Positions 6,062 through 55,730 of a stretch of 64,000 bases of DNA are shown piece by piece. Below the pieces are notes generated by a model. That model was not told where the DNA came from. It made no database searches and was given only the letters and a program-made list of their open reading frames with translations. The translations under genes were made by a program, and so were the position numbers. Origin of the DNA: an uncultured Clostridia bacterium (GTDB lineage: Bacteria > Bacillota > Clostridia > Christensenellales > Borkfalkiaceae); the NCBI GenBank assembly GCA_947625385.1, contig CANQOB010000006.1, positions 815-64,814 of the forward strand, given 5' to 3'. Each line of letters starts with the position of its first letter. The stretch's first letter is position 1.

Positions 6062-6101
6062 AAAGAAAAACAAAGGCTCCCTGTGAGCAAGGAGAAAAAG
6101 C

Positions 6102-7103
6102 ATGAAAAAATTGTTGGCTGTCTTATGCGCGCTTGCAATGTGCTTTGCACTTGCGGCGTGCGGGGAGAACGCGTCCGTAGGGGACGGAACGGATAACGGA
6201 ACAGACATCGGTTCGGATACGGGGTCGGACGTCGGGTCGGACGTCGGGTCGGACGACCGCGGGGAGAGCGGCTCCCCCGAAGAGGAGCTTGCCTCGCCGC
6301 TTGCGGCGCTCGAGACCATCGACCTCGAAACGGCGTTCGAGGGCAAAAGCGGGATGCTCGCCCTTGCCGCCGACTTCGGCACGGGATATTCGTTCCGCTG
6401 GACGAGCGGCGTGAGCGGAAGAGAGAAATTTTTCGCGGGGCTCGTTGCGGACATCGCTCTCGAAGATAAAATCGGCATCGAAGAAAAGGGACTCGTCGGG
6501 GGAGGGAACATCACCCTCGGCGCGACCTTGCAGGCGCCCTCCTCGGAGGGCGAACCGCTGCGCAAAGAGTTCGAGGCGGGCATCGTCCATGACGGGGAAT
6601 GGGTCGTCTATTCGCAGATGAACGGCGATGAGGGGCGGATCTCCATCGGAGACATCGGCGCAAAGGCAGAGGAAGTCTCGGGTGCGCTCTCGCCGCTGTA
6701 TGCCGCGGTCACGGAGATCTTCGATACCGCCGCGGAGGGCGGCACGCTCCGCCTCGGCGTGGAGAGGCTCCTCTCCCTCGGCTTTACCGCCGTCGTGGAT
6801 ACTTCGGACGGGGTCAGGGTGCACCTTGCGGCGTCAAAGGGATTTTTCACCGATCTTTTGAACGATATGCTCGAACGCTTCCTGCCCGAAGATTGGCTGC
6901 CGTACATCCCCCGCGCGGACTTCCGCTATACCTCGAATACGTTCGATATCACGCTCGCCTTCGACGCGGAGGGAAAATTCGAGGAATACACCGTGGAGAG
7001 CAACGTCGACCTCGGGCTGTCCCTCCGGATCAGGGGACTGTTCACCGCCGAGAGCGGCATGACGCAGGCGGGCGGATTCTCCATTCGCCGCACAACGGCT
7101 TAA
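6102..7103 (+). CDS. Lipoprotein of unknown function
   Basis: Signal peptide with lipobox MKKLLAVLCALAMCFALAAC|G, followed by a G/S/D/T low-complexity linker (GSDV repeats). SD AAGGAG is present. Confidence 0.7.
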   Translation: MKKLLAVLCALAMCFALAACGENASVGDGTDNGTDIGSDTGSDVGSDVGSDDRGESGSPEEELASPLAALETIDLETAFEGKSGMLALAADFGTGYSFRWTSGVSGREKFFAGLVADIALEDKIGIEEKGLVGGGNITLGATLQAPSSEGEPLRKEFEAGIVHDGEWVVYSQMNGDEGRISIGDIGAKAEEVSGALSPLYAAVTEIFDTAAEGGTLRLGVERLLSLGFTAVVDTSDGVRVHLAASKGFFTDLLNDMLERFLPEDWLPYIPRADFRYTSNTFDITLAFDAEGKFEEYTVESNVDLGLSLRIRGLFTAESGMTQAGGFSIRRTTA

Positions 7104-7595: not shown

Positions 7596-7613
7596 TGATT
7601 ACGGAGGTAAAAC

Positions 7614-8507
7614 ATGAAAAAATTTTTGACGCTCATCTGCGCGCTCGCCATGTGCTTTGCGCTCGCGGCATGCGGGGAGGGCAATCTGCCCCAAAACCCG
7701 TCCGACGGGGACGGGAAAGAGCAGGGCGGCACCGAAGTCACCGATCCGTCCGACGGGGATGGAGAAGAGCAGGGCGGCACCGAAGTCACCGACCCGTCCG
7801 ACGGGGACGGGGAAGAACAGGGCGGCTCCGAAGTCACCCTCACGGCGGACACCGATTTCGACGCGCTCGTCTCGGACAAGGTGACTGCGGAGGAGTGGGA
7901 TGCGGTGTTCACGAACGAATCGTTCGCGGGCTGCACGGTGGAGTATGCGAGAAGGTCGAACCGTACGAAGGCCTCGTTCGGCTACAAGCCGTTCGACGGG
8001 GGGTACGATTACTACCTCAACGTGTCGACTACCGACGTCTCCGACGGCGCTCCCGTCACCTATTCGCAGGAGATGATCGCCCATATCGAGGGGACGACGG
8101 CAAGACAGTACGGGAAAAATCTCGACGATCCGAACGACCCCGCCTACTATTATGTGGATTTGAATTTGGAGGGGGACGGCGACGTGGATACCGTCGTGGT
8201 CAAAGAGTGGATACTGACGTTCCGCTCCATGATTTCCTACGATTTCTCGGGGAAGAGCGCGCAGTTCTCCTATGACGAGACGCTCGGCGCCTATACCTAT
8301 CAGGGGACAGACCTGCGCGTCAAATATTCGCCGATGGAAGCGGGCGAATACACCGTCGCCAAAGCCGTTTTGAAGTTCGCGGGCGGCAAGCTCGCCTATG
8401 CGGCGGTGACGCTCTCCGGAAACGCCGAAGAGACGTTCAAATACTACGACTACGGCAAGACGGGGACGTTTGTTCCCGAGAACGCGAAGCCCTATACCGC
8501 AAACTGA
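7614..8507 (+). CDS. Lipoprotein of unknown function with a tandem 16-aa acidic repeat
   Basis: Signal peptide and lipobox MKKFLTLICALAMCFALAAC|G are nearly identical to those of the 6102 gene. It carries 3 copies of PSDGDGEEQGGTEVTD. SD GGAGG is present. Confidence 0.7.
   Translation: MKKFLTLICALAMCFALAACGEGNLPQNPSDGDGKEQGGTEVTDPSDGDGEEQGGTEVTDPSDGDGEEQGGSEVTLTADTDFDALVSDKVTAEEWDAVFTNESFAGCTVEYARRSNRTKASFGYKPFDGGYDYYLNVSTTDVSDGAPVTYSQEMIAHIEGTTARQYGKNLDDPNDPAYYYVDLNLEGDGDVDTVVVKEWILTFRSMISYDFSGKSAQFSYDETLGAYTYQGTDLRVKYSPMEAGEYTVAKAVLKFAGGKLAYAAVTLSGNAEETFKYYDYGKTGTFVPENAKPYTAN
7697..7840 (+). repeat. Three in-frame tandem copies of a 48-bp repeat inside the lipoprotein gene
   Basis: CCGTCCGACGGGGA(C/T)GG(G/A)(A/G)AAGA(G/A)CAGGGCGGC(A/T)CCGAAGTCACC... 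begins at 7697, 7745 and 7793. Confidence 0.9.
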
Positions 8508-16411: not shown

Positions 16412-16490
16412 TCGGACGTCCGTAAAAGCGCAAAAGCGAATTCGCTCGTGAAATTTGTTGCCAAAACAAATTTCATGAAAGGAGAAATTT

Positions 16491-33200: not shown

Positions 33201-35790
33201 CCCGCTCGGTGCGAATTTCTGCGACCGCAACGGCAGAATCAACGAAAAGAAGAGGCAGGAGTTCCTCAAAGACCTCTATGCCCTGCATGCGCAGGCGGAG
33301 GAGACCTTCCTCGATTACAATCCCGACGCATTCGACGGTATGTGCATCCGCGCCGCAAACGGCTATACCATGCCCGTGCTCGAAGGGTGCATCAAGGCTG
33401 CGGAGAGCTACTTTGCGGCGGAGGGGAGCTTCCTTGCGGTGACCTGCGCGGACCCCGCCAAGGTGCGCGGCGAGGACGTGTTCGACTACTTCTCGCAGAA
33501 GGCTTCCGCGCTCATCGACAACGTGGATATGCTCCCCAACTGGTGCATGTACCGCGCGACGGCGAAAAAACTTGCCGCCATGGGGCTCAACTTCATTACG
33601 GACGCCTTGGAGAGCGGCAGGCTCAAAGTCGAGAACGTGCTTGCGGGCTTCGAAAAGAACGTCTACAAGAACTTCCTCGAGATCACCATTCCGCAGGACG
33701 AGGCGCTTTCCCGTCTGACGGTGGGCACCCTCGAGGATACGGTGGAAAAATTCCGCCTTGCGTGGGAGGAATACAGCAGAATCTCCCGCGACTGTCTGCG
33801 CGCCGCTTTGATCTCCCGTCTGCCGAAGCCGGACGGCGAGGGGATGCTCGGACCGGAGCTCTCCGCGTTCACCCGCCTTGCCAAGACAAACCTGCGCGGC
33901 TCGGGCATCCGCGCGATGCTTGCCGAGATCCCGTCGCTTGCCGCCGTCGTCTGCCCCTGTCTGCTCATGAGCCCCATCACGGTGGCGCAATATCTCAAAC
34001 CCGAGGCGGACGCGTTCGACCTCGTGATCTTCGACGAGGCGTCCCAGATGACGACCGCGGAGGCAGTCGGCTCGATCGCCCGCGCCAAGGCGTGCGTCGT
34101 CGTCGGCGACCCCAAACAGCTCCCGCCCACCGCCTTCTTCCGCTCCTCCTATACGGATGAGGAGGCGGAAGGGGAGGAACTCGAGAGCGTGCTCGACGAC
34201 TGTCTCGCCCTCGGGATGCCCGAGCGGCATCTCCTCTGGCACTACCGCAGCAAGCACGAGAGTCTCATCGCGTTCTCCAACAGCATGTACTACGGCAACC
34301 GGCTGTGCACCTTCCCCTCCCCCGACGCGCTCGAAAGCAGGGTGAAACTCGTCAAGGTGGACGGCACCTACGACCGCGGGTTCACCAAGCGCAACAAGAA
34401 GGAGGCGGAGGCGCTCGTCGCCGAGGTCGTCAGGCGGTTGCAGGATCCGGAACTCTCCAAACGGAGCATGGGAATCGTCACCTTCTCGACGGCGCAGAGG
34501 GACGACATCGAGAGACTTTTGAACCGCGAGATCGCGCGTTTCAAACTCGAAGCCGCCGCATTCGACAGAGAGGAACCGCTCTTCGTCAAGAACCTCGAAA
34601 ACGTGCAGGGGGACGAGCGGGACGTCATCCTGTTCTCCGTCTGTTACGGTCCCGACCGCTTGGGGCGCGTCTCGCTCAATTTCGGACCCCTCAACCAGGC
34701 GGGCGGCTGGCGGCGGCTCAACGTCGCGGTGTCGCGTGCAAGAGAGGAGATGCTCGTGTTCTCCACCATGACCTCGCCCATGATCGACCTCGCAAAAACG
34801 ACGTCCAAGGGCGTCGCGGGGCTCAAAGCGTTCCTCGAATTTGCGGAGAGGGGCAAGACGACGCTTGCCGTGCGCGCCGACAGCGTGCGCTTCGGCGCGG
34901 GAATCGGAAAATACCTCGCCGCCGAACTCGAAAGCTACGGCTACGATTGCCGCTACGACGTGGGCGCCTCCGATTTCAAGCTCGACGTCGCCGTCGTCGA
35001 CCCCAAGAACAAGCACCGCTTTTTGCTCGGCATCCTCTGCGACGGCACGGAGGAATTCTCCGTCAAAGACAGAAATATCTTGCAGGTACAGACCTTAAAG
35101 CGCATGAATTGGAACGTTCTGCGCGTCAACAGCGTCAATTACTATAATAACCCCAAGCGGGAGCTCAAACGCATCAAGGATGTGCTCGACCGCCTGACGG
35201 GCGCGGACAAGAAGGGAGACCGGCTGTCCAAATACCGCAAACCGTACAAATTCGTCAAACAGACCGCCTCCGAGACGGCGGCGTTCGTCACTTCCGGCGA
35301 CAACGACGCGGAGATCGTCGCCCGCCTCAAAGAGATCGTCGCGACGGAGGAACCCATCTCGCGCGCATTTCTGCGGAAACGCTGTCTCATGAGCTTCGGA
35401 ATCGCCAAGAGCGGCACCCGCGTGGACGCCCGTCTCGACGCGCTCATCGACAGCTGCGCCTTCCCCCGCGACCGCGTGCAGGGCGTGGACTACTTCTACA
35501 AGAATCCCCGCTGTCTGCAACTCGGGAAATTCCGCGTGGAGAGCGTTTCTCCCGCTTTGCGGCGGGGGGAGGACGATTTCACGGTGTACGAGGTCGTCTC
35601 CCTCATCAAGGGCGCGCTGGAAGAGCGGGTAGCGCTCTATCCCGACGAGCTCACCGCCCTGCTCGGGAATGTGTTCGCCGATCTGCGCTCGGGAGAACGC
35701 TTCCTCGCGTTTTTGCAAAGCTGTATCACCTACGGCGAAGAGAAGGGACTCTTCGTGAGATCGGTGTCGGATAGGATAAGCTTGGCTTAG
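30211..35790 (+). CDS. Large SF1 (UPF1/DNA2-like) helicase with a DUF4011-like N-region, a restriction-endonuclease-like domain and a DUF3320-like C-terminus
   Basis: Walker A VLHGPPGTGKSQT, Walker B LVIFDEASQM, VVGDPKQLPPT, HYRSKHESLI, VQGDERDVILFS, LNVAVSRAREE. DUF4011-like LLDLTYKNTLLSF. REase-like DVGASDFKLDVAVVD...LGILCDG. SD GGAG lies 8 nt upstream of ATG 30211. Confidence 0.85.
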   Translation: MAVKRKVITEKLTVGLSFPKYIGYADYFLQTPLRIRIKSTFEEALTLTVSVSGAEGLLLPYERTVEVPFESAVSVENSGVFSPEYLAEVTEPHTVSVNVSVRLDGKEVAGESAEITVLPFDFWEGLSGNAERIACFVRPRNNDCAVLLADAGKQLKKWRADAEFYGYSGTDKNTVRRILAAIYQSVKTAGIAKDGETDCSAPLSAVRETSVLKEKRATAFQLAVLAASCLEAAHFHPVIAVGKDVAVGVWLYDSCFLEPAFDDAEIVERYVSDGINNLSFFDADDLFVGSSAPFTPSEGHFRSKLKEGYYEYFVDIRRCRMGGIGSCPMRGKSIKGFEVYSEESGDEPAPLPVFRDLKLDGKLPKNKLWERRLLDLTYKNTLLSFEGKNALHLASPGCDALLLRLAEKGSMKLKAGGEEAFGAEVSPQKRSLYELEQQKGILRVLADQKTLTETAGKLLRRRREAVEETGAKILYLALGFLKYVSREDGLPKCAPLVLCPVSLARAKGNEDFSVLAADEGYFVNATLLEFLKQEFNIDIRGLGGDVSALKLSEIFAMVRAETASMKGWDIAEDVYLSVFSFQNFLLWNDIRTHIDEFSKNATVSALLTGYAEKREFPAAQEEDNDDPERILLPLPLDSSQYGAVSLADTGASFVLHGPPGTGKSQTISAIIANALLHGKRVLFVAEKKAALDVVKKRLDAIGIGDFSLELHSNKTDKAGVLRRMEATLALAGREEPVGFGERTRELVALREELKEPMRALHKTRRLGISVYQAILGYLKNKNAPDILDIESSFYDSLDEKKLSECKQMILTAAAAAKDCGGVFNSPFENVNRTVYSQELRDRLFCACEVILTEIKHLRAFLALFLEFYRQRISTLTRKKLLSLTEIAKDLASGKYRKYFADVDEGEFYRFYNANRRLDACLAYYFRHFKAPVETEDAEEIARMLENGGDWKLFRPARAAFKRLSRVAILPLDEADAPKFLQTLADIDAAQKRITENTPLGANFCDRNGRINEKKRQEFLKDLYALHAQAEETFLDYNPDAFDGMCIRAANGYTMPVLEGCIKAAESYFAAEGSFLAVTCADPAKVRGEDVFDYFSQKASALIDNVDMLPNWCMYRATAKKLAAMGLNFITDALESGRLKVENVLAGFEKNVYKNFLEITIPQDEALSRLTVGTLEDTVEKFRLAWEEYSRISRDCLRAALISRLPKPDGEGMLGPELSAFTRLAKTNLRGSGIRAMLAEIPSLAAVVCPCLLMSPITVAQYLKPEADAFDLVIFDEASQMTTAEAVGSIARAKACVVVGDPKQLPPTAFFRSSYTDEEAEGEELESVLDDCLALGMPERHLLWHYRSKHESLIAFSNSMYYGNRLCTFPSPDALESRVKLVKVDGTYDRGFTKRNKKEAEALVAEVVRRLQDPELSKRSMGIVTFSTAQRDDIERLLNREIARFKLEAAAFDREEPLFVKNLENVQGDERDVILFSVCYGPDRLGRVSLNFGPLNQAGGWRRLNVAVSRAREEMLVFSTMTSPMIDLAKTTSKGVAGLKAFLEFAERGKTTLAVRADSVRFGAGIGKYLAAELESYGYDCRYDVGASDFKLDVAVVDPKNKHRFLLGILCDGTEEFSVKDRNILQVQTLKRMNWNVLRVNSVNYYNNPKRELKRIKDVLDRLTGADKKGDRLSKYRKPYKFVKQTASETAAFVTSGDNDAEIVARLKEIVATEEPISRAFLRKRCLMSFGIAKSGTRVDARLDALIDSCAFPRDRVQGVDYFYKNPRCLQLGKFRVESVSPALRRGEDDFTVYEVVSLIKGALEERVALYPDELTALLGNVFADLRSGERFLAFLQSCITYGEEKGLFVRSVSDRISLA

Positions 35791-36185
35791 GTTTCGCGCG
35801 ATTTCTTTTGCTGCGCAAAATAAATACGCGCGAGCGAATGAGCATGTATGCCTCAATAAGCTTGATTCCGATTATATGTTTCATCGGACAGTAAGCCTGC
35901 GGTGGCGTTGCAAATGGGGTCGCGCAGCGCAAAAGCGTGGTTTTGCTCGCGCACAAAATTTAAGAATTTCGGCGAAAATCTTTGCTGCGCAAATATTTTC
36001 GTCGAGCGAATGGGCGTTGGCGGCTTAATTGACTTGGCTCCGATTAGATGTTTCATCGGACAGTAAGCCGAAAGGGTTCGGCAACTTGGGTCGCCCACGG
36101 CGGAAGTGAATTCCGCCTAAGGCACAAAATTTAAGAGTTTCGCGCGGTTTCTTTTGCTGACGCAAAATAAATACGCGCGAGCGAA
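35791..36185 (+). repeat. Array A of an unrecognised hairpin-rich intergenic repeat: units 35791-35966 and 35967-36137 plus a terminal head module 36138-36185
   Basis: Head-to-tail units share head modules (GTTTCGCGCGATTTCTTTTGC..GCAAAATAAATACGCGCGAGCGAA and TTTCGGCGAAAATCTTTGC..GCAAATATTTTCGTCGAGCGAA), the core CCGATTAGATGTTTCATCGGACAGTAAGCC and the tail ACAAAATTTAAGA. The array starts directly after the helicase stop codon. Confidence 0.9.
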
Positions 36186-36233
36186 GAGGAGTCAAGGCTT
36201 CGAGGGCTCGATCGTATTCGTTCATCAAATCGG

Positions 36234-36262
36234 TTGACAAATACCGCGGTTTGTGATACAAT
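36234..36262 (+). promoter_or_regulatory. Sigma-A type promoter of ktrBA
   Basis: TTGACA at 36234-36239, 17-bp spacer, TACAAT at 36257-36262. Confidence 0.5.
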
Positions 36263-36282
36263 CGCTCAAAACCGTAAGAATT

Positions 36283-37647
36283 ATGAAATTTCCCAAGCTC
36301 AAACACAAGTTGAGCGTATGGCAGTACCTCGCGCTCGGATATTTCGCGGTCATCGTCGTCGGGACCGTGCTGCTCGTTTTGCCCCCCGCAAAGCAGGGGG
36401 AGGGCGGCGCATACTTTATCGACGCGCTCTTCACCGCCGTCTCCGCCGCCTGCGTGACGGGACTCGTCCCCTTCGCCTCCGTGCAGTGGACTCTGTACGG
36501 ACAGATCGTCATCCTCATCCTCATCCAGCTCGGCGGGCTGGGGTTCATGACCTTCGTCTCCCTCATCCTGCTCGCCGTGCGCGGCGGTCTCAAACAGTAT
36601 CAGCGGCGCGCAGTCCTGCAAGCCATGGGCGGCGGCAATCTGAACGGCGTCAAGCGGCTCATCCGCAGAATCATTCTCGGCACGATGCTCTTCGAGGTGT
36701 CGGGCGCGGGGCTGCTCTGTATCCGTTTCATCCCCGAATACGGGGTGCGGCGCGGCATCTATTATGCGGTGTTCCACGCCGTCTCCTCCTTCTGCAATGC
36801 GGGATTTGACGTGATCGGCACAGAGAGCCTCTCCAAATATGCGACGGACCCGCTCGTCTCGCTCACTCTGTGCGTGCTCATCATTGTGGGAGGGCTCGGC
36901 TTCTGCATCTTGCAGGACGTCGTTGACAGCCGCTTCCGTCCCACACGGTTCCAATTCTATACGCGGGTCATTCTGTGCGTGAATACCGTTTTGCTCGTCG
37001 GCGGGACGGCGCTCTTTTTGCTCTTCGAACGCAACAACCCCGTCTATGACGGCTATACGTTTGGGGAAAAGCTGCTCTGCGCCCTCTTCAACAGCACGAC
37101 GGCGCGCACCGCGGGCTTCTATACCACCCCGCCCGAGACGCTCTCTTCGAGCGGGTACTTCCTCATGGTCATCCTCATGTTCATCGGCGGCAGCTCGGGC
37201 AGTACCGCGGGCGGCATCAAGGTGGGGACGTTCGTCGTCATCGTCATGGGTATGGTCGCCGTCATGCGCGGCAAGCGCGACCTCAACATCGGTAAACGCC
37301 GCATCGACATGACGCTTCTCTGGCAATCGCTCGCCATCCTGACGGCGTATCTGGCGCTCATACTCGTCTCGACGATGCTCATCTGCGCCGTCGAACCCGC
37401 CCCCGCCATAGGAGATGCGAGCGGCTATATGTTCCGCCGCGCGCTCTTCGAATGCGTCTCCGCGCTCGGCACCGTGGGACTGTCCGTGGGAGGATTCACC
37501 GAGAGTCTTTCCGTCGTGTCCAAACTCGTCCTCATCTTCCTCATGTACACCGGGAGGGTGGGGATTCTCACCGTCGCTTCCGCCATGCGGAGCAAAAAGG
37601 GAGTCTCCTCCGTGAGAAAACCCGTCGATATGTTCTTCATCGGCTGA
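36283..37647 (+). CDS. ktrB: Potassium uptake protein, TrkH/KtrB family membrane subunit
   Basis: Repeated pore-loop pattern (TAVSAACVTGL, SSFCNAGFD, NSTTARTAGF, ECVSALGTVGLS). The track start GTG 36253 lies inside the predicted -10 box, so ATG 36283 is preferred. Confidence 0.85.
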   Translation: MKFPKLKHKLSVWQYLALGYFAVIVVGTVLLVLPPAKQGEGGAYFIDALFTAVSAACVTGLVPFASVQWTLYGQIVILILIQLGGLGFMTFVSLILLAVRGGLKQYQRRAVLQAMGGGNLNGVKRLIRRIILGTMLFEVSGAGLLCIRFIPEYGVRRGIYYAVFHAVSSFCNAGFDVIGTESLSKYATDPLVSLTLCVLIIVGGLGFCILQDVVDSRFRPTRFQFYTRVILCVNTVLLVGGTALFLLFERNNPVYDGYTFGEKLLCALFNSTTARTAGFYTTPPETLSSSGYFLMVILMFIGGSSGSTAGGIKVGTFVVIVMGMVAVMRGKRDLNIGKRRIDMTLLWQSLAILTAYLALILVSTMLICAVEPAPAIGDASGYMFRRALFECVSALGTVGLSVGGFTESLSVVSKLVLIFLMYTGRVGILTVASAMRSKKGVSSVRKPVDMFFIG

Positions 37648-37794
37648 GCAGCCTCCGCGGCGGCGGTTTCAAGGCATATGTGCCGAACAACAGATGTGCG
37701 GCGGCGCTTTTGACGGAATTTTTCGAAGAATTGCACCGGAAAGCAGATGTGCGCAGGCGCATGGCACAAAAATTTGCATAGAAAGGAGAAAATT

Positions 37795-38448
37795 ATGATT
37801 TCCGTGTTATTGATCGGTATGGGAAAATTCGGGCGGACGCTCGGCGAGCAGCTCCTCAGCATGGGCGACGAAGTTATGATCGTCGACAAAAAAGAGGACG
37901 TCATCAACACGCTCGCGCCCCGCTATACCAACGCGCTCATCGCGAACTGCGCCGAGGCGGACAATCTCCGCGTCATGGATATCCCTTCCTTCGACGTGTG
38001 CATCGTCGCCATCGGCGAGGACTTCCAGTCCTCCCTTGAGATCACTTCCAATCTCAAAGATCTCGGCGCGAAACGGGTCATCTCCAAGGCTTCGACCGAG
38101 ATTCAACGCAAATTCCTCCTCCGCGAGGGCGCGGATGAGGTCATCTATCCCGACCGCGATATCGCAGAGAAGCTCGCCGTCCGCCTCAATTCCTCCAACG
38201 TCATCAATTTTATCGACCTCGACGCCCGCTATTCCATCTTCGAGATCGCATGCCCAGCAAAGTGGCAGGACAAAAAACTTATCGACGTCAACCCGCGCAA
38301 ACGGTACGGCATGAATATCCTCACCGTCAAAAAGGGAGACGAGGTCATCACGAGCCTCGACGGGGAGTATGTGTTCACTGCGGGGGATCAACTCGTCGTG
38401 TTCGGCGACACGCAGACCATTCTCAAATTTACGAACTCGCACAAATAG
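37795..38448 (+). CDS. ktrA: Potassium uptake regulatory subunit, TrkA-N/KtrA type
   Basis: Rossmann motif LLIGMGKFGRTLG, with RCK_N and RCK_C in 217 aa. SD AGGAG is upstream of ATG 37795. Confidence 0.85.
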   Translation: MISVLLIGMGKFGRTLGEQLLSMGDEVMIVDKKEDVINTLAPRYTNALIANCAEADNLRVMDIPSFDVCIVAIGEDFQSSLEITSNLKDLGAKRVISKASTEIQRKFLLREGADEVIYPDRDIAEKLAVRLNSSNVINFIDLDARYSIFEIACPAKWQDKKLIDVNPRKRYGMNILTVKKGDEVITSLDGEYVFTAGDQLVVFGDTQTILKFTNSHK

Positions 38449-38670
38449 TTTCGGCGAAAATCTTTCCTGCGGAAATATTTTCGTCGAGCGAATAGGCGGG
38501 TATGCTTTAATAAACGTGATTCCGATTAGATGTTTCAACGGACAATGTGCGTCCCGTGGGGCGCAAATGCAGTGAAAAAGCAAAAAGTGTGATTTTTGCT
38601 TTTTCCTTTATTTTTAGGTTTCGCGCGATTTCTTTTGCTGACGCAAAATAAATACGCGCGAGCGAATAGG
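38449..38670 (+). repeat. Array B of the same repeat family: unit 38449-38617 plus a terminal head module 38618-38670
   Basis: Same module order as arrays A and C. It starts at the nucleotide after the ktrA stop codon TAG (38446-38448). Confidence 0.9.
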
Positions 38671-38690
38671 TGAGTTTCATTTTTATCATC

Positions 38691-38721
38691 AAAAAATCCT
38701 CGCTTGCGGCGAGGATTTTTT
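38691..38721. terminator. Bidirectional intrinsic terminator (fba on the - strand; repeat array B on the + strand)
   Basis: AATCCTCGC (38695-38703) pairs with GCGAGGATT (38709-38717), flanked by an A6 tract and a T6 tract. Confidence 0.75.
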
Positions 38722-38758
38722 CGGTCTTTTTATTCCAAAATTGCAAAATGGGGGCGGG

Positions 38759-39694
38759 TTATGCCTTGTTTGCGGAGCCGAGCACGTCGCAGATCTTGTG
38801 CTTGACCATCGCTTTCATGCTCGCGCGGGCGTCGGTGAGATACTGTCTCGGGTCGAAGTGAGAGGGGTTCTCCGCAAAATGCTTTCTGATCGCCGCCGTG
38901 AACGCGACGCGGAGATCGCTGTCGATGTTGATCTTGCACACCGCGAGCGCCGCAGCCTTTTTGAGCTCGCTCTCGGGAATGCCGATGGCGTTGGGCATGC
39001 TGCCGCCGAACTCGTTGACGATAGCGACCTGGTCCTGCGGCACGCTCGACGCGCCGTGCAGCACGATGGGGAAGCCGGGAAGGCGTCTGCCGATCTCTTC
39101 GAGGATGTCGATGCGCAGTTTGGGGTCCTGCCCCGGTTTGAATTTATAGGCGCCGTGCGAGGTGCCGATGGCGATGGCAAGCGAATCGATGCCTGTCCTC
39201 GCTGTGAACTCCTCCACTTCGTCGGGAGAGGTGAACATGGCGTCCTTGTCGGCGACATGGACGTCGTCCTCCACGCCCGCGAGCTTGCCGAGCTCGGCTT
39301 CGACGACCACGCCGTGGTCGTGCGCGTATTCGACGACCTTGCGCGTGAGGGCGATGTTCTCCTCCCAGGGCTTGGAGGAGGCGTCGATCATGACGGAGGT
39401 GAACCCGCCGTCGATGGACGACTTGCAGATCTCGAAATCCGCGCCGTGGTCGAGGTGCATGGCGACGGGGATGTCCGTCGTCTCGACCGCCGCCGCGACG
39501 AGGTGGCGCAGATACACGGGATTTGCATATTTTCTCGCGCCCGCAGAGACCTGCAAAATGACGGGAGAGCGGCATTCGTTCGCCGCTTCGACGATCGCCT
39601 GTATCATCTCCATATTGTTGACGTTGAACGCGCCGACGGCATAGCCGCCCGCATACGCTTTTTTGAACATGTCTGTCGTGGTTACCAAAGGCAT
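38759..39694 (-). CDS. fba: Class II fructose-1,6-bisphosphate aldolase
   Basis: GYAVGAFNVNN, VAMHLDHG, LAIAIGTSHGAYK and VLHGASS motifs. SD GGAGGAA is present. Confidence 0.92.
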   Translation of the reverse strand: MPLVTTTDMFKKAYAGGYAVGAFNVNNMEMIQAIVEAANECRSPVILQVSAGARKYANPVYLRHLVAAAVETTDIPVAMHLDHGADFEICKSSIDGGFTSVMIDASSKPWEENIALTRKVVEYAHDHGVVVEAELGKLAGVEDDVHVADKDAMFTSPDEVEEFTARTGIDSLAIAIGTSHGAYKFKPGQDPKLRIDILEEIGRRLPGFPIVLHGASSVPQDQVAIVNEFGGSMPNAIGIPESELKKAAALAVCKINIDSDLRVAFTAAIRKHFAENPSHFDPRQYLTDARASMKAMVKHKICDVLGSANKA

Positions 39695-46534: not shown

Positions 46535-47032
46535 ATGGTCATTCTTGGGCTGGACCCCGGCTACGGCACGATGGGGTACGGCGTCATCGAAAAGGACGCA
46601 AGGGGAAATTGCACCTGCGTGGACTATGGTGCGGTCAAGACTCCCGCCTCGGAGAGCTTCCCCGTGCGGCTGTGCATGCTCGAAGAGGGCGTCAATGCGC
46701 TGTTCGACAAATTTCATCCCGAAGAAGCGGCAATGGAGGAGCTGTTCTTCTCCAAAAATATCACGACGGGTATCGCCGTCGCGCATGCGCGCGGGGTCAT
46801 TCTGCTCACCTGCAACAAGCGCTGCGGCAGAATCTTCGAATATACGCCCAATCAGATCAAACAGGCGCTCACGGGCTACGGCGGCGCGGATAAAGGGCAG
46901 ATGCAGAGGGTGGTCGCCTCGCATCTGCGCCTCAAAAGGATTCCTCGTCCCGACGACGCCGCGGATGCCCTCGCCGTCGCGCTCTGCCATGCGTTCACGA
47001 GCAGATTTTCGGGGATGTTTGGAATCAAATAA
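46535..47032 (+). CDS. ruvC: Crossover junction endodeoxyribonuclease RuvC
   Basis: ILGLDPGYGTMGYGVI ... EELFF ... DAADALAVALCH. ATG 46535 follows a consensus promoter. Confidence 0.9.
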   Translation: MVILGLDPGYGTMGYGVIEKDARGNCTCVDYGAVKTPASESFPVRLCMLEEGVNALFDKFHPEEAAMEELFFSKNITTGIAVAHARGVILLTCNKRCGRIFEYTPNQIKQALTGYGGADKGQMQRVVASHLRLKRIPRPDDAADALAVALCHAFTSRFSGMFGIK

Positions 47033-47034
47033 GA

Positions 47035-47424
47035 TTTCGGCGAAAATCTTTGCGTGCGCAAATCTTTTCGTCGAGCGAATTTACTTCTGCGCCTTAACGA
47101 ACTTGGCTCCGATTAGTCGTTTCAACGGACAGTGTGCGTCCCGTGGGGCGCAAATTGTGTCGCGCAGCGCAAAAGCGTGGTTTTGCTCGCGCACAAAATT
47201 TAAGAGGTTTCGCGCGATTTCTTTTGCATTCGCAAAATAAATATGCGCGAGCGAATGGGCGTTTACGCCTCAATAGGCTTGGCTCCGATTAGTCGTTTCA
47301 TCGGACAGTGTGCGTCCCGTGGGGCGCAAATTGTGTCGCGCAGCGCAAAAGCGTGGTTTTGCTCGCGCACAAAATTTAAGAGTTTCGGCGAAAATCTTTG
47401 CGTGCGCAAATCTTTTCGCCGAGG
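47035..47424 (+). repeat. Array C of the same repeat family: units 47035-47206 and 47207-47382 plus a terminal head module 47383-47424
   Basis: Segments 47101-47206 and 47277-47382 are identical apart from one mismatch. The array starts 2 nt after the ruvC stop codon. Confidence 0.92.
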
Positions 47425-48084: not shown

Positions 48085-48878
48085 TGAAGGAGTTCACCGT
48101 CAAGGAAGGGACCGTCAAGGTGGACGGCATGGAAGTCGAGGAGGACTGTACCCGCCTCATCCTTCCGCCGAGCGTAAGAGAGATCGACGACTTTGCCTTC
48201 TTCGGCAACGGGACGCTTGAAGAGGTCGTCTTTTCCGAGGGGCTTCAACGCATCGGGGACTGTGCGTTCCGCGAATGCACGGCGCTCAGATCGCTCGTCT
48301 TTCCCGCGAGCCTGCAAACGGTCGGAAGTTCGGCGTTCATGGACTGCTCTTCCCTCGAAAGCGCCGTCTTTACGGGCGGCGGTCCCAAGGAGCTCCCCAC
48401 GGAGATGTTCTGCAACTGCAAGGCATTGAAAACGGTTCGGCTCGGTTCGGCGCTCCAAAATCTGAGTACGGGCATGGAGATCGGCGGCACCTTCGAAGAT
48501 TGCCTCTCGCTCGAAGAGATCGTTTTGCCCGAAGGGTGCGAGATCATCGACTGGGCGGCATTTTCGGGCTGCAAAAACCTCTCCCGCATCGTGCTCCCCT
48601 CCACATTGCAGAAGGTCGGCGAGAAATCGCTCTACGGCACGGCGGTCAAAGAGCTCGTCTTTGCGGAGGGGCTTCGGAGCCTCTGGAAGGCGATATACGG
48701 CTGCGAAAAGCTCACGCGCATCGTGCTCCCCTCCACGGTGACGTCGCTCTCCTACAAGGAGTTCGGCGGGGGACTTCCGAGCCTTCGCGAAGTCGTTTTG
48801 CCGAAAAGGTTCGAAGGGGACCTCGAGCTGTACTTTCAAAAAGAGGACTTCAGGCGCATCCACATCACGTTTATTTGA
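48081..48878 (+). CDS. BspA-type leucine-rich repeat (LRR_5) protein with no signal peptide
   Basis: Repeats of the form I.D.AF..C..L..VV.P..L..IG..AF. The start overlaps the ruvA stop (ATGA). Confidence 0.75.
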   Translation: MMKEFTVKEGTVKVDGMEVEEDCTRLILPPSVREIDDFAFFGNGTLEEVVFSEGLQRIGDCAFRECTALRSLVFPASLQTVGSSAFMDCSSLESAVFTGGGPKELPTEMFCNCKALKTVRLGSALQNLSTGMEIGGTFEDCLSLEEIVLPEGCEIIDWAAFSGCKNLSRIVLPSTLQKVGEKSLYGTAVKELVFAEGLRSLWKAIYGCEKLTRIVLPSTVTSLSYKEFGGGLPSLREVVLPKRFEGDLELYFQKEDFRRIHITFI

Positions 48879-49958: not shown

Positions 49959-50765
49959 ATGGCGATCCAAGTAAAAAACCACGTTCTCATAAACGGCTGG
50001 GGAGAGGGCGGAGATCTCGTCATCCCGAGCGCTGTGGACGGAGCCGCCATCGAGGCGATCGGCATGAGCGCGTTTTTCGCAAATGCGCGGCTTACGGGCG
50101 TCACGATCCCGCGCGGCGTGAAACGAATCGGGGACAGTGCATTCTGCGGCTGTGAAAACATGAGGGCCGTTACCCTTCCGGAGGGGTTGCAAACGATCTG
50201 CGCGAGCGCGTTCCGCGGTTGCAGTTCTCTTCGGAGCGTCGTCATTCCGGACGGCATGACGGGCATCGGACCGAGCGCATTTGCTTCCTGTACTTCACTT
50301 GAGCACGTCGTCCTTCCCAAAGGCATGACGGACATTTCCTATGGTGCATTCTACGGCTGCACTTCTCTGAAAAGCGTCGTCTTTTCGGGCAGCATGAAGT
50401 CGATCGGACCAAAAGCATTTTCGCAGTGCACTTCCCTGAAAAGCGTCGTCTTTCCTGACGGCGCGGAACTCTCGGAAGACATCTTGGAAGGATGTTCCGC
50501 CCTCGAGAGCGTCGATCTGACGGCGTCGTCGGATTACTACCATGATCCGATGCCCCGCATCAACGCCCCCGCTACCCTCAAAAGGGTGAGCATCAGGGCA
50601 TGGAAAAACTCGTCGTGGGACGTTTGCGGCGGCAACTACAATTGGACCGGGTGGCTCCATGAGCTCCTTTCCGCGAATCCCGGCATCCGCGAACTCATTC
50701 TTCCCAAGGATGCCGAGACCGGACATGTGCCCATCCCCCCGAACTGCCGCATTACAAGAAGATAG
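49959..50765 (+). CDS. BspA-type leucine-rich repeat (LRR_5) protein with no signal peptide
   Basis: Repeats: [59 protein letters not shown]... Confidence 0.75.
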
Positions 50766-54212: not shown

Positions 54213-54368
54213 ATGATCAAAACGATTGCAAAACCGACCGAAAAGAAAGTTACGGGCTGCGGCGAGTGCAGAAGCACCTGCCAATCCGCTTGCAAGACGA
54301 GCTGCACCGTGGGCAACCAGTCCTGCGAGAGAGTCACCCGCGAGCAGAAGATCGAAGAAGTGAAATAA
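54213..54368 (+). CDS. scfA: Six-cysteine ranthipeptide precursor SCIFF (51 aa; absent from the supplied ORF track)
   Basis: My translation is MIKTIAKPTEKKVTGCGECRSTCQSACKTSCTVGNQSCERVTREQKIEEVK. It carries the hallmark GCGEC..(S/T)CQSACKTSCTVGNQ.CE with six Cys. SD GGAG and a consensus promoter lie upstream, and the radical SAM maturase is immediately downstream. Confidence 0.9.
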   Translation: MIKTIAKPTEKKVTGCGECRSTCQSACKTSCTVGNQSCERVTREQKIEEVK

Positions 54369-54422: not shown

Positions 54423-55730
54423 ATGAGACACGTCTTTTCCTATCACGAGAAATACTATATCTATGACGTGGGGAGCGGGAGTCTGCACGAATGCGACGAG
54501 GCGACGGCGAAACTTCTTTCGGGAGAGCCCGTTTGCATCGGCAGCGGCGAGCTGTCCTCCGCAGTCTCCGGCATCCGCGCCCTCCGCGACGCGGGGCTTT
54601 TGGACGCGCCCGAGACGGCGGTGCGTCCCGTCAAGTCGCACGACATCAAGGCGCTTTGCCTGCATGTCTCGCACGACTGCAACCTGCGCTGCCGCTACTG
54701 CTTTGCGGACGAGGGCGCCTATCATTCCGCGCGCGAGGTGATGAGCTTTGAGACGGCGAAGGCGGCGATCGACTTCCTTCTTCGCAACAGCGGAACGAGA
54801 CAGGTGCTCGAAGTGGATTTCTTCGGCGGCGAGCCGCTCATGAATCTCGGCGTCGTCAAAGAGACGGTGTACTACGCAAAGCGCGAGGCGGCGAAGCTCG
54901 GCAAGAAATTTCTCTTTACGACGACGACGAACGGACTGCTTTTGGACGACGAGACCATCGAATTTTTCAACGAGGAGATGGAGAACGTCGTTTTGTCCCT
55001 CGACGGGAGAAAGGAAGTGCACGACGCCGTGAGAAAGACGGTCAGCGGCAAGGGAAGTTTCGACGCGGTGATCGGGAAGATCAAGAAATTCGTCAAAGCG
55101 AGAGGGGACAAGCATTACTATGTCCGCGGCACCTTCACGGCGAACAATCTCGATTTTTCCAAGGACGTGCTCTTCCTCGCCGACAACGGCTTCGACAGCA
55201 TCTCCATGGAGCCCGTCGTCACCGATCTCGACGATTTGCAGATCAAAGAGGAACATCTGCCCGTCATCGAGCGGGAGTACGAGACACTCTGCGACGAGTA
55301 TGTAAAGCGCGAACGGGAGGGAAGGGGATTTCTCTTCTTCCATTTTCAGATCGATCTCGAAGGCGGACCCTGCCTCGCAAAGCGCGTGTCCGCATGCGGC
55401 GCGGGAAACGAGTATTTTTCCGTCGTTCCCTGCGGCGATATCTATCCCTGCCATCAATTTGCGGGCGACAAGGATTTTTGCATGGGCAACGTATTCGAGG
55501 GCGTCCTCGACGAAACGATTCGGGATAAATTTGCCGCGAGCAGTCTCTTCACGCGGGAGAAATGCGGGGATTGCTTCGCCAAATATATCTGCTCGGGCGG
55601 GTGCAGCGCGAACAACTATCATTTCACGGGCGACATCAACAAACCCTACGAGATGACGTGCGCCATGATGAAAAAACGCATCGAATGTGCGATGCATGTG
55701 CTCGCGATGAGAAAATCTTCGGAAAATTGA
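54423..55730 (+). CDS. scfB: Radical SAM/SPASM thioether cross-link-forming SCIFF maturase
   Basis: CNLRCRYCF radical SAM cluster, C-terminal SPASM cysteines (CGAGNEYFSVVPCGDIYPC ... CGDCFAKYICSGGC), adjacent to scfA. Confidence 0.9.
   Translation: MRHVFSYHEKYYIYDVGSGSLHECDEATAKLLSGEPVCIGSGELSSAVSGIRALRDAGLLDAPETAVRPVKSHDIKALCLHVSHDCNLRCRYCFADEGAYHSAREVMSFETAKAAIDFLLRNSGTRQVLEVDFFGGEPLMNLGVVKETVYYAKREAAKLGKKFLFTTTTNGLLLDDETIEFFNEEMENVVLSLDGRKEVHDAVRKTVSGKGSFDAVIGKIKKFVKARGDKHYYVRGTFTANNLDFSKDVLFLADNGFDSISMEPVVTDLDDLQIKEEHLPVIEREYETLCDEYVKREREGRGFLFFHFQIDLEGGPCLAKRVSACGAGNEYFSVVPCGDIYPCHQFAGDKDFCMGNVFEGVLDETIRDKFAASSLFTREKCGDCFAKYICSGGCSANNYHFTGDINKPYEMTCAMMKKRIECAMHVLAMRKSSEN

Follow-up and report, generated by a model that had tools for sequence, protein, structure and literature searches.

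The stretch of DNA analysed here (64,000 nt, hereafter the window) comes from an uncultured Clostridia bacterium (assembly GCA_947625385.1, contig CANQOB010000006.1, positions 815 to 64,814), and its subject is locus B (38449-38667), a hairpin-rich intergenic repeat that lies between trkA and a convergent aldolase gene. Locus B is one of three plus-strand loci of a single repeat family in the window, the others being loci A and C (Table 1). Each locus is an array of the form head-(body-head)n, with two bodies at A, two at C and one at B, and together they hold five units and eight full heads, as an initial annotation of this DNA had counted; a ninth, diverged solo head was added here. The repeat unit of ~175 nt is made up of a head of ~45 nt and a body of ~125 nt. 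By analogy with known repeat systems, we regard locus B, with moderate confidence, as one copy of a lineage-restricted, non-coding and non-autonomous mosaic repeat family, comparable to the arrays formed by repetitive extragenic palindromic (REP) sequences and bacterial interspersed mosaic elements (BIMEs) and to the dRS3-RS arrays known as Neisseria intergenic mosaic elements (NIMEs).

All heads are intergenic and share one build, in which a GTTTCG foot, an 11-bp lower stem, a conserved C/T 1x1 internal loop, an upper stem of 5-6 bp and a loop of 3-4 nt form a palindrome with an interrupted stem of 16-17 bp. A purine-rich WARG sequence precedes the head, and a GAGCGAAT tail follows directly 3' of its stem. 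Two head types alternate in the window, type 1 with the lower stem TCGGCGAAAAT.../...ATTTTCGTCGA and type 2 with TCGCGCGATTT.../...AAAT(A)CGCGCGA. The bodies are mutually homologous (mean column identity 81%) and run in a fixed order from a weak P2 hairpin through the motif GTTTCAWCGGACA(A/G)T, the P4 hairpin, the linker GCAAATNGNG and the P5 hairpin to an A/T-rich end that closes with TTTAAGAG or TTTTTAGG. The unpaired conserved motifs GAGCGAAT, GTTTCAWCGGACAAT and GCAAATNGNG sit between covarying stems, and the core TTCCGATTAGATGTTTCAACGGACA has four matches in the window at up to 3 mismatches, compared with 0 expected.

Table 1. Coordinates of the repeat loci in the window and of the features adjoining locus B.
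Feature	Positions	Strand	Description
trkA (TrkA_N/TrkA_C)	37795-38448	+	Locus B repeat begins right after its stop codon (TAG, 38446-38448)
Locus B head 1, type 1	38449-38493	+	11 bp, C/T 1x1 internal loop, 5 bp TTTCC/GGAAA, TGC loop, tail GAGCGAAT; 76.8 bits
Locus B body	38494-38618	+	Weak P2 (38496-38509), conserved motif, P4, GCAAAT linker, P5, T-rich 3' end closing with TTTTTAGG
Conserved core motif TTCCGATTAGATGTTTCAACGGACA	38520-38544	+	Only GTTTCAWCGGACA(A/G)T is common to the sister species
P4 hairpin	38549-38564	+	GCGTCC-CGTG-GGGCGC; 6 bp, 4-nt loop, one G.U-type pair
P5 hairpin ("third hairpin")	38574-38605	+	Perfect 13-bp A/T-rich stem GAAAAAGCAAAAA-GTGTGA-TTTTTGCTTTTTC, then CTTTATTTTT
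Locus B head 2, type 2	38619-38667	+	TCGCGCGATTT-C-TTTTGC-TGAC-GCAAAA-T-AAAT(A)CGCGCGA and tail GCGAAT
Canonical bidirectional intrinsic terminator	38691-38721		Outside the repeat, between trkA and the convergent aldolase gene (38759-39694, -)
Locus A array	35792-36186	+	head2-body-head1-body-head2 (heads 35792-35839, 35967-36011, 36138-36186); starts 1 nt past the TAG stop (35788-35790) of a gene for a 1872-aa helicase-like protein and ends upstream of the trkH promoter (36234-36262)
Locus C array	47035-47423	+	head1-body-head2-body-head1 (heads 47035-47080, 47208-47256, 47383-47423); starts 2 nt past the ruvC stop TAA (47030-47032), with ruvA (47482) downstream
Diverged solo head	16438-16483	-	TGAAATTTGTT-TTGGC-AACAAATTTCA, then CGAGCGAAT; 13.1 bits; occupies a 79-bp spacer between two plus-strand genes

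The strings and coordinates quoted in the initial annotation are all correct, namely the head at 38449, the TTTGC-TGC-GCAAA apex of locus A (35981-35993), the TTTGC-GTGC-GCAAA apex of array C, the stem at 38574-38605 and the core. Its reading of the first locus B head as a compensatory double substitution made at this locus was right as to the pairing but not as to the place. This head, whose first base adjoins the trkA stop codon, reads TTTCGGCGAAAATC-TTTCC-TGC-GGAAA-TATTTTCGTCGAGCGAAT, and a TTTCC...GGAAA head also occurs at three sites in the sister species L083 (9372, with the loop TAC, 9647 and 18160). Since the same apex is present in L083 and the orthologous site is empty there, the double change is evidently an old, shared subfamily variant that reached locus B with the copy, and because the two changed bases are 5 nt apart, they would be transferred together in any conversion tract. 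In the second locus B head, six pairs of the lower stem have both bases changed relative to type 1.

Similarly, the P5 hairpin of locus B does have a perfect 13-bp stem, but it is a diverged positional homologue of the P5 of the other copies rather than an unrelated replacement. When it is set column by column against the version found in A and C (47153-47188), GT..AGC..AAA...TTTTGCT is kept, with the central AGC/GCT pairs, the A-run and T-run and the GTG loop, and the change is confined to the outer pairs, from G:C to A:T. A similar A/T-rich intermediate, TTGCTGCACAAAA-TTGTGA-TTTTGCTTGCAA, was found in a distant relative (L022), which may hold a diverged fragment of the family. The GTG loop motif, described as common to all versions, occurs in four of the five P5 variants and is absent from L003 (loop ATCAA). 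The hairpin described as GCGTCCC/GGGGCGC is present, but arms of 7 nt would leave a loop of 2 nt, and the true stem is the 6-bp P4 with its 4-nt loop; the same position is occupied in other copies by GCCGAA/TTCGGC, GCAAA/TTTGC, GCAGA/TCTGC or GCGCGA/TCGCGC. The core persists as a sequence motif (GTTTCAWCGGACAAT or TAAGACAATAAGC) in L083 and L097, but the CCGAT/ATCGG pairing within it is lost in both, and P2 is poorly conserved across copies.

The pairing of the hairpins is conserved through changes on both sides of their stems. Across 14 aligned heads, 98.2% of the cells are paired, compared with 78.3% in column shuffles (0/500), and 8 of the 16 pairs are altered on both sides; when the partner was slid by 1-3 columns, only 32-57% remained paired. 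For P4 and P5 together (six copies from four species), 91.7% are paired compared with 76.6% in shuffles (0/500), with both sides altered in 7 of 16 pairs, three in P4 and four in P5. Chimeric hairpins, in which the 5' arm of one variant was joined to the 3' arm of another, were far weaker than hairpins with native arms for P1 (-7.5 versus -17.6 kcal/mol), P4 (-2.1 versus -6.0) and P5 (-4.3 versus -12.8). The earlier proposal that the fold is kept while the stem sequences change is thus borne out. On an ordinary MAFFT alignment, RNAalifold recovered the head apex, the base of P4 and P5, with 10 compensated pairs. MAFFT gave no structure-consistent alignment of all head types, and rows were trimmed for pair counting: in the ungapped 14-head alignment, type-2 rows lack 3 nt (a bulged A and one upper-stem T-A pair) and the L005 row lacks the bulged A only. 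As the copies are related and few, these figures describe a consistent pattern rather than probabilities, and the shuffle controls overstate significance because the copies are not independent of one another.

Relatives were collected through a TrkH-anchored scan with one genome per species and through TrkA homologues and their contigs. Among the relatives collected, no more than four, all uncultured Clostridia and mostly metagenome-assembled genomes from rabbit gut, share the family with the window organism: the sister species represented by L083, L084 and L085 (GCA_947631925.1; TrkA 93% identical), L097 (78%), L003 (TrkH 65%) and L005, which has a solo head. The sister species L083 has the same gene order as the window, with genes at 80-86% nucleotide identity, but the arrays are distributed differently. 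In the window they follow the stop codons of the helicase gene, trkA and ruvC. In L083 they lie past the helicase stop, within the trkH-trkA spacer (2.5 units) and past the stop of a leucine-rich repeat (LRR) gene, whereas the trkA-fba spacer, which is equivalent to locus B, is empty (70 bp) and the ruvC-ruvA spacer retains a truncated head only. In relatives at ~80% TrkA identity the spacers are compact and all three sites are empty. Copies have been gained and lost at orthologous sites.

Modules have also been exchanged between copies by gene conversion. L083 and L084, two assemblies of one species from separate samples, share 99.7% identity along 18.4 kb. The internal differences between them all fall inside repeats (L083 7379-7421 and 9363-9460), with ~17 kb of genes between the differing repeats identical; at one of these differences, part of one unit is replaced by the sequence of another. 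The P4 and P5 variants occur in the recombined combinations i+a, i+b, iii+b, ii+a and ii+c, truncated heads are present, half-heads are left after stop codons, and nested insertions are found within hairpin loops. Owing to the repeats, strains that are otherwise identical differ in these spacers alone, which makes the repeats usable as strain markers and likely points of assembly breakage. Locus B itself is no assembly artefact, since its sequence recurs without a difference in an independent assembly (L001, ENA ERZ27249389).

The placement of the arrays is strict. In five species, all 11 plus-strand arrays start 0-6 nt past the stop codon of a co-oriented upstream gene, and six genes bear them (helicase, trkH, trkA, ruvC, the LRR gene and a Flg_new_2 gene); outside this count, a truncated 5' half-head lies directly past the stop of a radical-SAM gene in L100. 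TA(A)G(A/G) precedes each head, internal heads included, and is similar to the sequence at the body's 3' end. Oppositely oriented exceptions are a complete array in L003 (12140-12385) and the heads at 16438-16483 in the window and 7723-7772 in L083. Such strictness suggests either a target-site rule or a function in the 3' untranslated region (UTR). Two accounts fit. One is a target preference for stop-codon-like sequence that matches the element's own end, from which the tandem arrays would also follow; in the other, the spacers are so short that purifying selection tolerates insertion at no other position. As a separate observation at locus A, the promoter just past the array, 20 nt before trkH, is near-consensus (TTGACA-17-TACAAT with an upstream TG, 11/12 matches), and the same promoter stands directly past the helicase stop in L089, a relative free of the repeat.

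Several features point to the plus strand as the relevant single strand. The non-Watson-Crick pairs in the 14 aligned heads are T.C or, in 8 cells at 3 positions, of the G.U type on the plus strand, with no A.C pair, and plus-strand G.U pairs also occur within P4 and P5. The RNA fold is more stable on the plus strand in 7 of 10 units, as at locus B (-78.3 versus -64.9 kcal/mol), and a covariance model of the head scores 70-77 bits on the plus strand and 28-32 bits on the minus strand. This model was built from type-1 heads and is narrow, with type-2 heads at 17-27 bits and the heads of L003, L005 and L097 missed. Folding energy alone cannot choose the strand, as RNA and DNA folds are significant on both (z = -4.5 on plus and -5.7 on minus for locus B against dinucleotide shuffles). 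About 40 of 45 likely genes in the window (GC content at third codon positions ~0.8 in real genes) are on the plus strand, which would accordingly be both the mRNA sense and, very probably, the lagging-strand template. No promoter-like site was found inside the arrays, so that any transcription of them would be read-through from the upstream gene; lying in 3' UTRs and intercistronic spacers, the arrays would be co-transcribed and would also fold in the mRNA.

The presence and absence of copies at orthologous sites, the shuffling of modules, the truncated and nested copies and the repeat-confined strain differences together argue for a mobile DNA repeat with its hairpins as substrate. The best reading is that the compensatory changes are real but arose within mobile, recombining hairpin repeats that are more REP/BIME/NIME-like than like a dedicated RNA gene. 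The inference drawn in the initial annotation, that such changes mark a functional structured nucleic acid, is supported as far as structural conservation goes, but neither a dedicated functional RNA nor a locus-specific compensatory event is supported, and covariation in repeated hairpins alone does not identify an RNA gene. We propose that the elements spread and recombine through a folded single top strand, which may be recognised by a hairpin-specific enzyme such as a Y1/HUH transposase (of the REP-associated tyrosine transposase, RAYT, or IS200/IS605 kind), an Ssn-like nuclease acting on single-stranded DNA (ssDNA), or a recombinase, and that this need for a folded strand would maintain the pairing of the stems. 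At locus B, the TTTCC/GGAAA stem would then be an inherited or converted module variant that did not arise locally, and so would the A/T-rich P5. P5 with its T-run may in addition serve trkA, probably as an extra terminator or 3'-end protector. Its 13 pairs include three G:C, and with the tail CTTTATTTTT it has the GC-containing stem of at least 5 bp and the T-run of a predicted intrinsic terminator; it is the sole P5 flagged as terminator-like by a consensus scan, and the terminator outside the repeat (38691-38721) is stronger.

Interspersed hairpin repeats such as REP/BIME, REPIN and NIME are well studied in Proteobacteria, and we know of no description of REP systems or of interspersed hairpin repeats in uncultured gut Clostridia. 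REPs are palindromes of 20-50 nt that are preceded by a tetranucleotide, usually GTAG, and form tandem mosaics (PMC8266576), and compensatory changes are reported to be common in REPIN hairpins (PMC3116915). The present family resembles them as a set of short imperfect extragenic palindromes past genes, in transcribed positions, with a short conserved 5' motif, two hairpin types that alternate in tandem mosaics (cf. the y and z types of BIMEs), a conserved stem mismatch or bulge, compensatory changes that keep pairing, and presence that varies between strains. It differs from REPs and BIMEs in that the linker is a 125-nt homologous structured body rather than a short variable spacer, and no RAYT gene, which REPs usually flank, was identified in the 64-kb window or in the ~20-kb loci of relatives. 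NIMEs are dynamic arrays in which hairpin repeats flank units of 50-150 bp (PMC1797815), and their hairpins are cut as ssDNA by the dedicated nuclease SsnA (PMC11893778). The likeness here lies in the hairpin-unit-hairpin-unit-hairpin order with a hairpin at both ends, in the unit size, in hairpins with oriented non-palindromic flanks, and in dynamic, recombinogenic arrays that are invaded by other repeats and differ in content between the window, L083 and L084. However, the heads have no similarity to dRS3 (ATTCCC-N8-GGGAAT) or NTS and no match to the SRM pattern, the bodies are variants of one family rather than more than 100 unrelated RS families, the arrays abut stop codons, and no ssnA-like gene was seen.

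Two further groups of elements offer partial parallels. Like the IS200/IS605-derived palindrome-associated transposable elements (PATEs), whose insertion takes place 3' to a short target of fixed sequence, the family has similar hairpins near both ends on one strand (head 1 and head 2 of locus B), lacks terminal inverted repeats and any obvious target duplication, carries 5' of the left hairpin a recurrent but degenerate short sequence (WARG) that resembles the element's own 3' end, and has an orientation that follows co-directional genes and thus also the lagging-strand template. It differs from PATEs in that the left hairpin abuts the putative target and leaves no room for a guide tetranucleotide, in its n+1 heads per n bodies, and in that no tnpA or tnpB was found; the flanks of filled and empty sites could not be aligned for this comparison, and the right boundary of the element is thus undefined. 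BOX elements of Streptococcus pneumoniae and other modular repeats resembling miniature inverted-repeat transposable elements (MITEs), such as Correia, RUP and bcr1, are likewise modular and intergenic (of the boxA-boxB(n)-boxC type), co-transcribed and variable in module copy number, with predicted stable stem-loops. The present family has no sequence similarity to them, lacks terminal inverted repeats, is placed beside stop codons, and has a head that recurs at the ends and between units. What sets it apart is the combination of a REP-like hairpin with a long, structured and conserved body in a family outside Rfam.

Several points weigh against its interpretation as a mobile repeat of this kind. 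The 5' motif is WARG followed by (G)TT instead of GTAG, which is found at one of ~22 heads (L083 19268-19271), and the heads within an array are all in direct orientation rather than in the inverted pairs of BIMEs and REPINs. No transposase or nuclease of the kind proposed, and no Y1 domain, was found among the 10 small or minus-strand window open reading frames (ORFs) that were scanned, nor were terminal inverted repeats or target-site duplications identified, so that any mechanism of transposition is putative. The G.T bias fits RNA and top-strand ssDNA alike, with an orientation that matches transcription and probably replication, and as ssDNA the hairpins are equally stable on both strands. 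Structured bodies that remain homologous, with their unpaired motifs kept, at 65-78% protein identity fit the usual pattern of a functional RNA better than that of NIME spacers. In addition, the sample is small, at about 12 units and 20 heads from 5 species.

One alternative is that the element is primarily a cis-acting structured RNA that resides in 3' UTRs and between cistrons, its head and body hairpins being under selection as RNA and its dispersal secondary. The hairpins might hinder 3'-5' exonucleases, offer sites for RNase processing, bind a protein at the conserved unpaired motifs or modulate translation termination. The full arrays of the window, L083 and L097 would suit such a role, being all in sense orientation, 0-6 nt past stops and without promoters of their own, as would the conserved single-stranded motifs between covarying stems, the G.U pairs confined to the sense strand, the stabler plus-strand fold in 7 of 10 units and the terminator-like P5 of locus B. 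Against it stand the complete antisense array in L003 and the antisense solo or truncated heads in the window and L083, the lack of any Rfam family match, the poor conservation of P2 and of the core stem, and the difference in the element between near-identical strains. Moreover, the housekeeping genes of close relatives go without the element, which must therefore be dispensable at each site. We consider selection at the RNA level unlikely as the primary explanation, although a cis-acting 3'-UTR role is a live alternative and need not exclude a mobile repeat. Slightly less probable still is a mobile structured element of a kind not described before, which homes just past stop codons, whether as a 3'-UTR RNA module acting in termination, decay or ribosome release or as the substrate of a stop-codon-targeting, hairpin-guided ssDNA enzyme; on that tentative account, the ~175-nt unit would carry three covarying hairpins together with conserved unpaired motifs.

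A different view would dispense with structural selection and have DNA quasi-palindromes maintained by intrastrand template switching and gene conversion, in which one arm is copied from the other or both arms move as one, the covariation being a by-product of a few subfamily founders. The apex of locus B would agree with this, as its two changed bases, separated by 5 nt, recur in another species and so indicate one founder event; block conversion between copies is directly seen, and the non-independence of the copies inflates the significance of the shuffles. Nevertheless, both sides have changed in no fewer than 8 pairs of the heads, 3 of P4 and 4 of P5, across four species and several distinct variants, while 92-98% of the cells stay paired, and the covarying arms are up to 30 nt apart. 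Moreover, mismatches in the 14 heads are overwhelmingly G.T on one strand without any A.C, which strand-symmetric mutation would not predict, and the unpaired motifs are conserved too, so that an origin free of structural selection seems improbable. It is very improbable that the tandem units encode a multicopy family of small RNAs acting in trans, transcribed or processed from the arrays with the heads as processing sites in the manner of crRNA or ToxI. The ~175-nt, head-delimited tandem units do carry unpaired motifs able to pair with targets, but the arrays have no promoter-like sites and a terminator-like end at locus B only, no nuclease, cas or toxin gene lies nearby, copy presence differs between sister species, and there is no Rfam match. 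The reading as a mobile mosaic repeat is the one that we retain, with the probability stated at the outset.

Database searches brought no match to the family. With the entire window as query, nothing in Rfam 15 reached its gathering score, and a search of 35700-38800 at the looser limit of E<=10 returned sub-threshold noise only (at most 25 bits, compared with gathering scores of 48-84); a tRNA/tmRNA search was also negative, leaving the 64 kb without a tRNA, rRNA or Rfam family. Exact-pattern scans with the body core gave 0 matches each in one-genome-per-species and metagenome contigs, as did scans with the type-1 head in metagenome and viral contigs, and blastn of locus B against plasmid and phage collections found no match. 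The SRM regular expression had one match in the window, outside the repeats, compared with 0.45 expected.

Several specific identities were considered and rejected. An 18-aa peptide (ATG...TAA) in units A1 and A2 is not a conserved product, since the copies in B1, C1 and L083 lack the start codon or the frame. The arrays are not a CRISPR, as the "spacers" are homologous to each other and no cas gene is nearby, nor an integron cassette array, the bodies having no conserved ORF and intI being absent from the vicinity. A ToxI-like array was set aside in view of the lack of a nearby toxin gene, and self-cleaving ribozyme repeats in view of the lack of a Rfam ribozyme match. Finally, a classical MITE does not apply, because the two ends of the unit (GTTTCG... 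and ...TTTAAGAG) do not form inverted repeats and no consistent duplication flanks A, B or C.

The relatives also carry a second, unrelated set of intergenic repeats that adjoins or interrupts the head-body arrays and was not seen in the window. It consists of hairpin units that start with GTCAT(G/T/C)YTGAGC and end with GTCGAA..ATMTCC, together with a GC-rich unit of ~300 nt, and is located in L083 (7395-7700, 9700-9950 and 18325-18660), L097 (10860-10925 and 18765-18830), L003 (11620-12110) and L100 (430-480 and 21790-21910). Its hairpins are superficially like the NTS/SRM of the Ssn nuclease paper, although the published SRM pattern has no match to them. In addition, short GC-rich hairpins are inserted exactly in the apical loops of family heads or of P5, with the surrounding stems intact (L003 11381-11447; L097 18521-18556 and 18668-18716; L083 9497-9600).

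Other features of the window lie apart from the repeat family. A small Cys-rich ORF at 54213-54368 (MIKTIAKPTEKKVTGCGECRSTCQSACKTSC...) is followed by an ORF of radical-SAM size (54423-55730), and the syntenic pair in L100 is annotated as SCIFF (PF13165) and Radical_SAM. A 48-nt sequence is repeated three times in tandem within a coding region (7696-7838, 90% matches), and the start regions of neighbouring genes at 6084-6167 and 7596-7679 are 80% identical, with a lipoprotein-type signal peptide (MKK...LALCALAMCFALAACG). A family of 36-nt direct repeats at 69-nt spacing (48276-48380 and 50220-50462) lies in coding sequence and probably represents repeated protein modules with an LRR-like period of 23 aa rather than a non-coding repeat.

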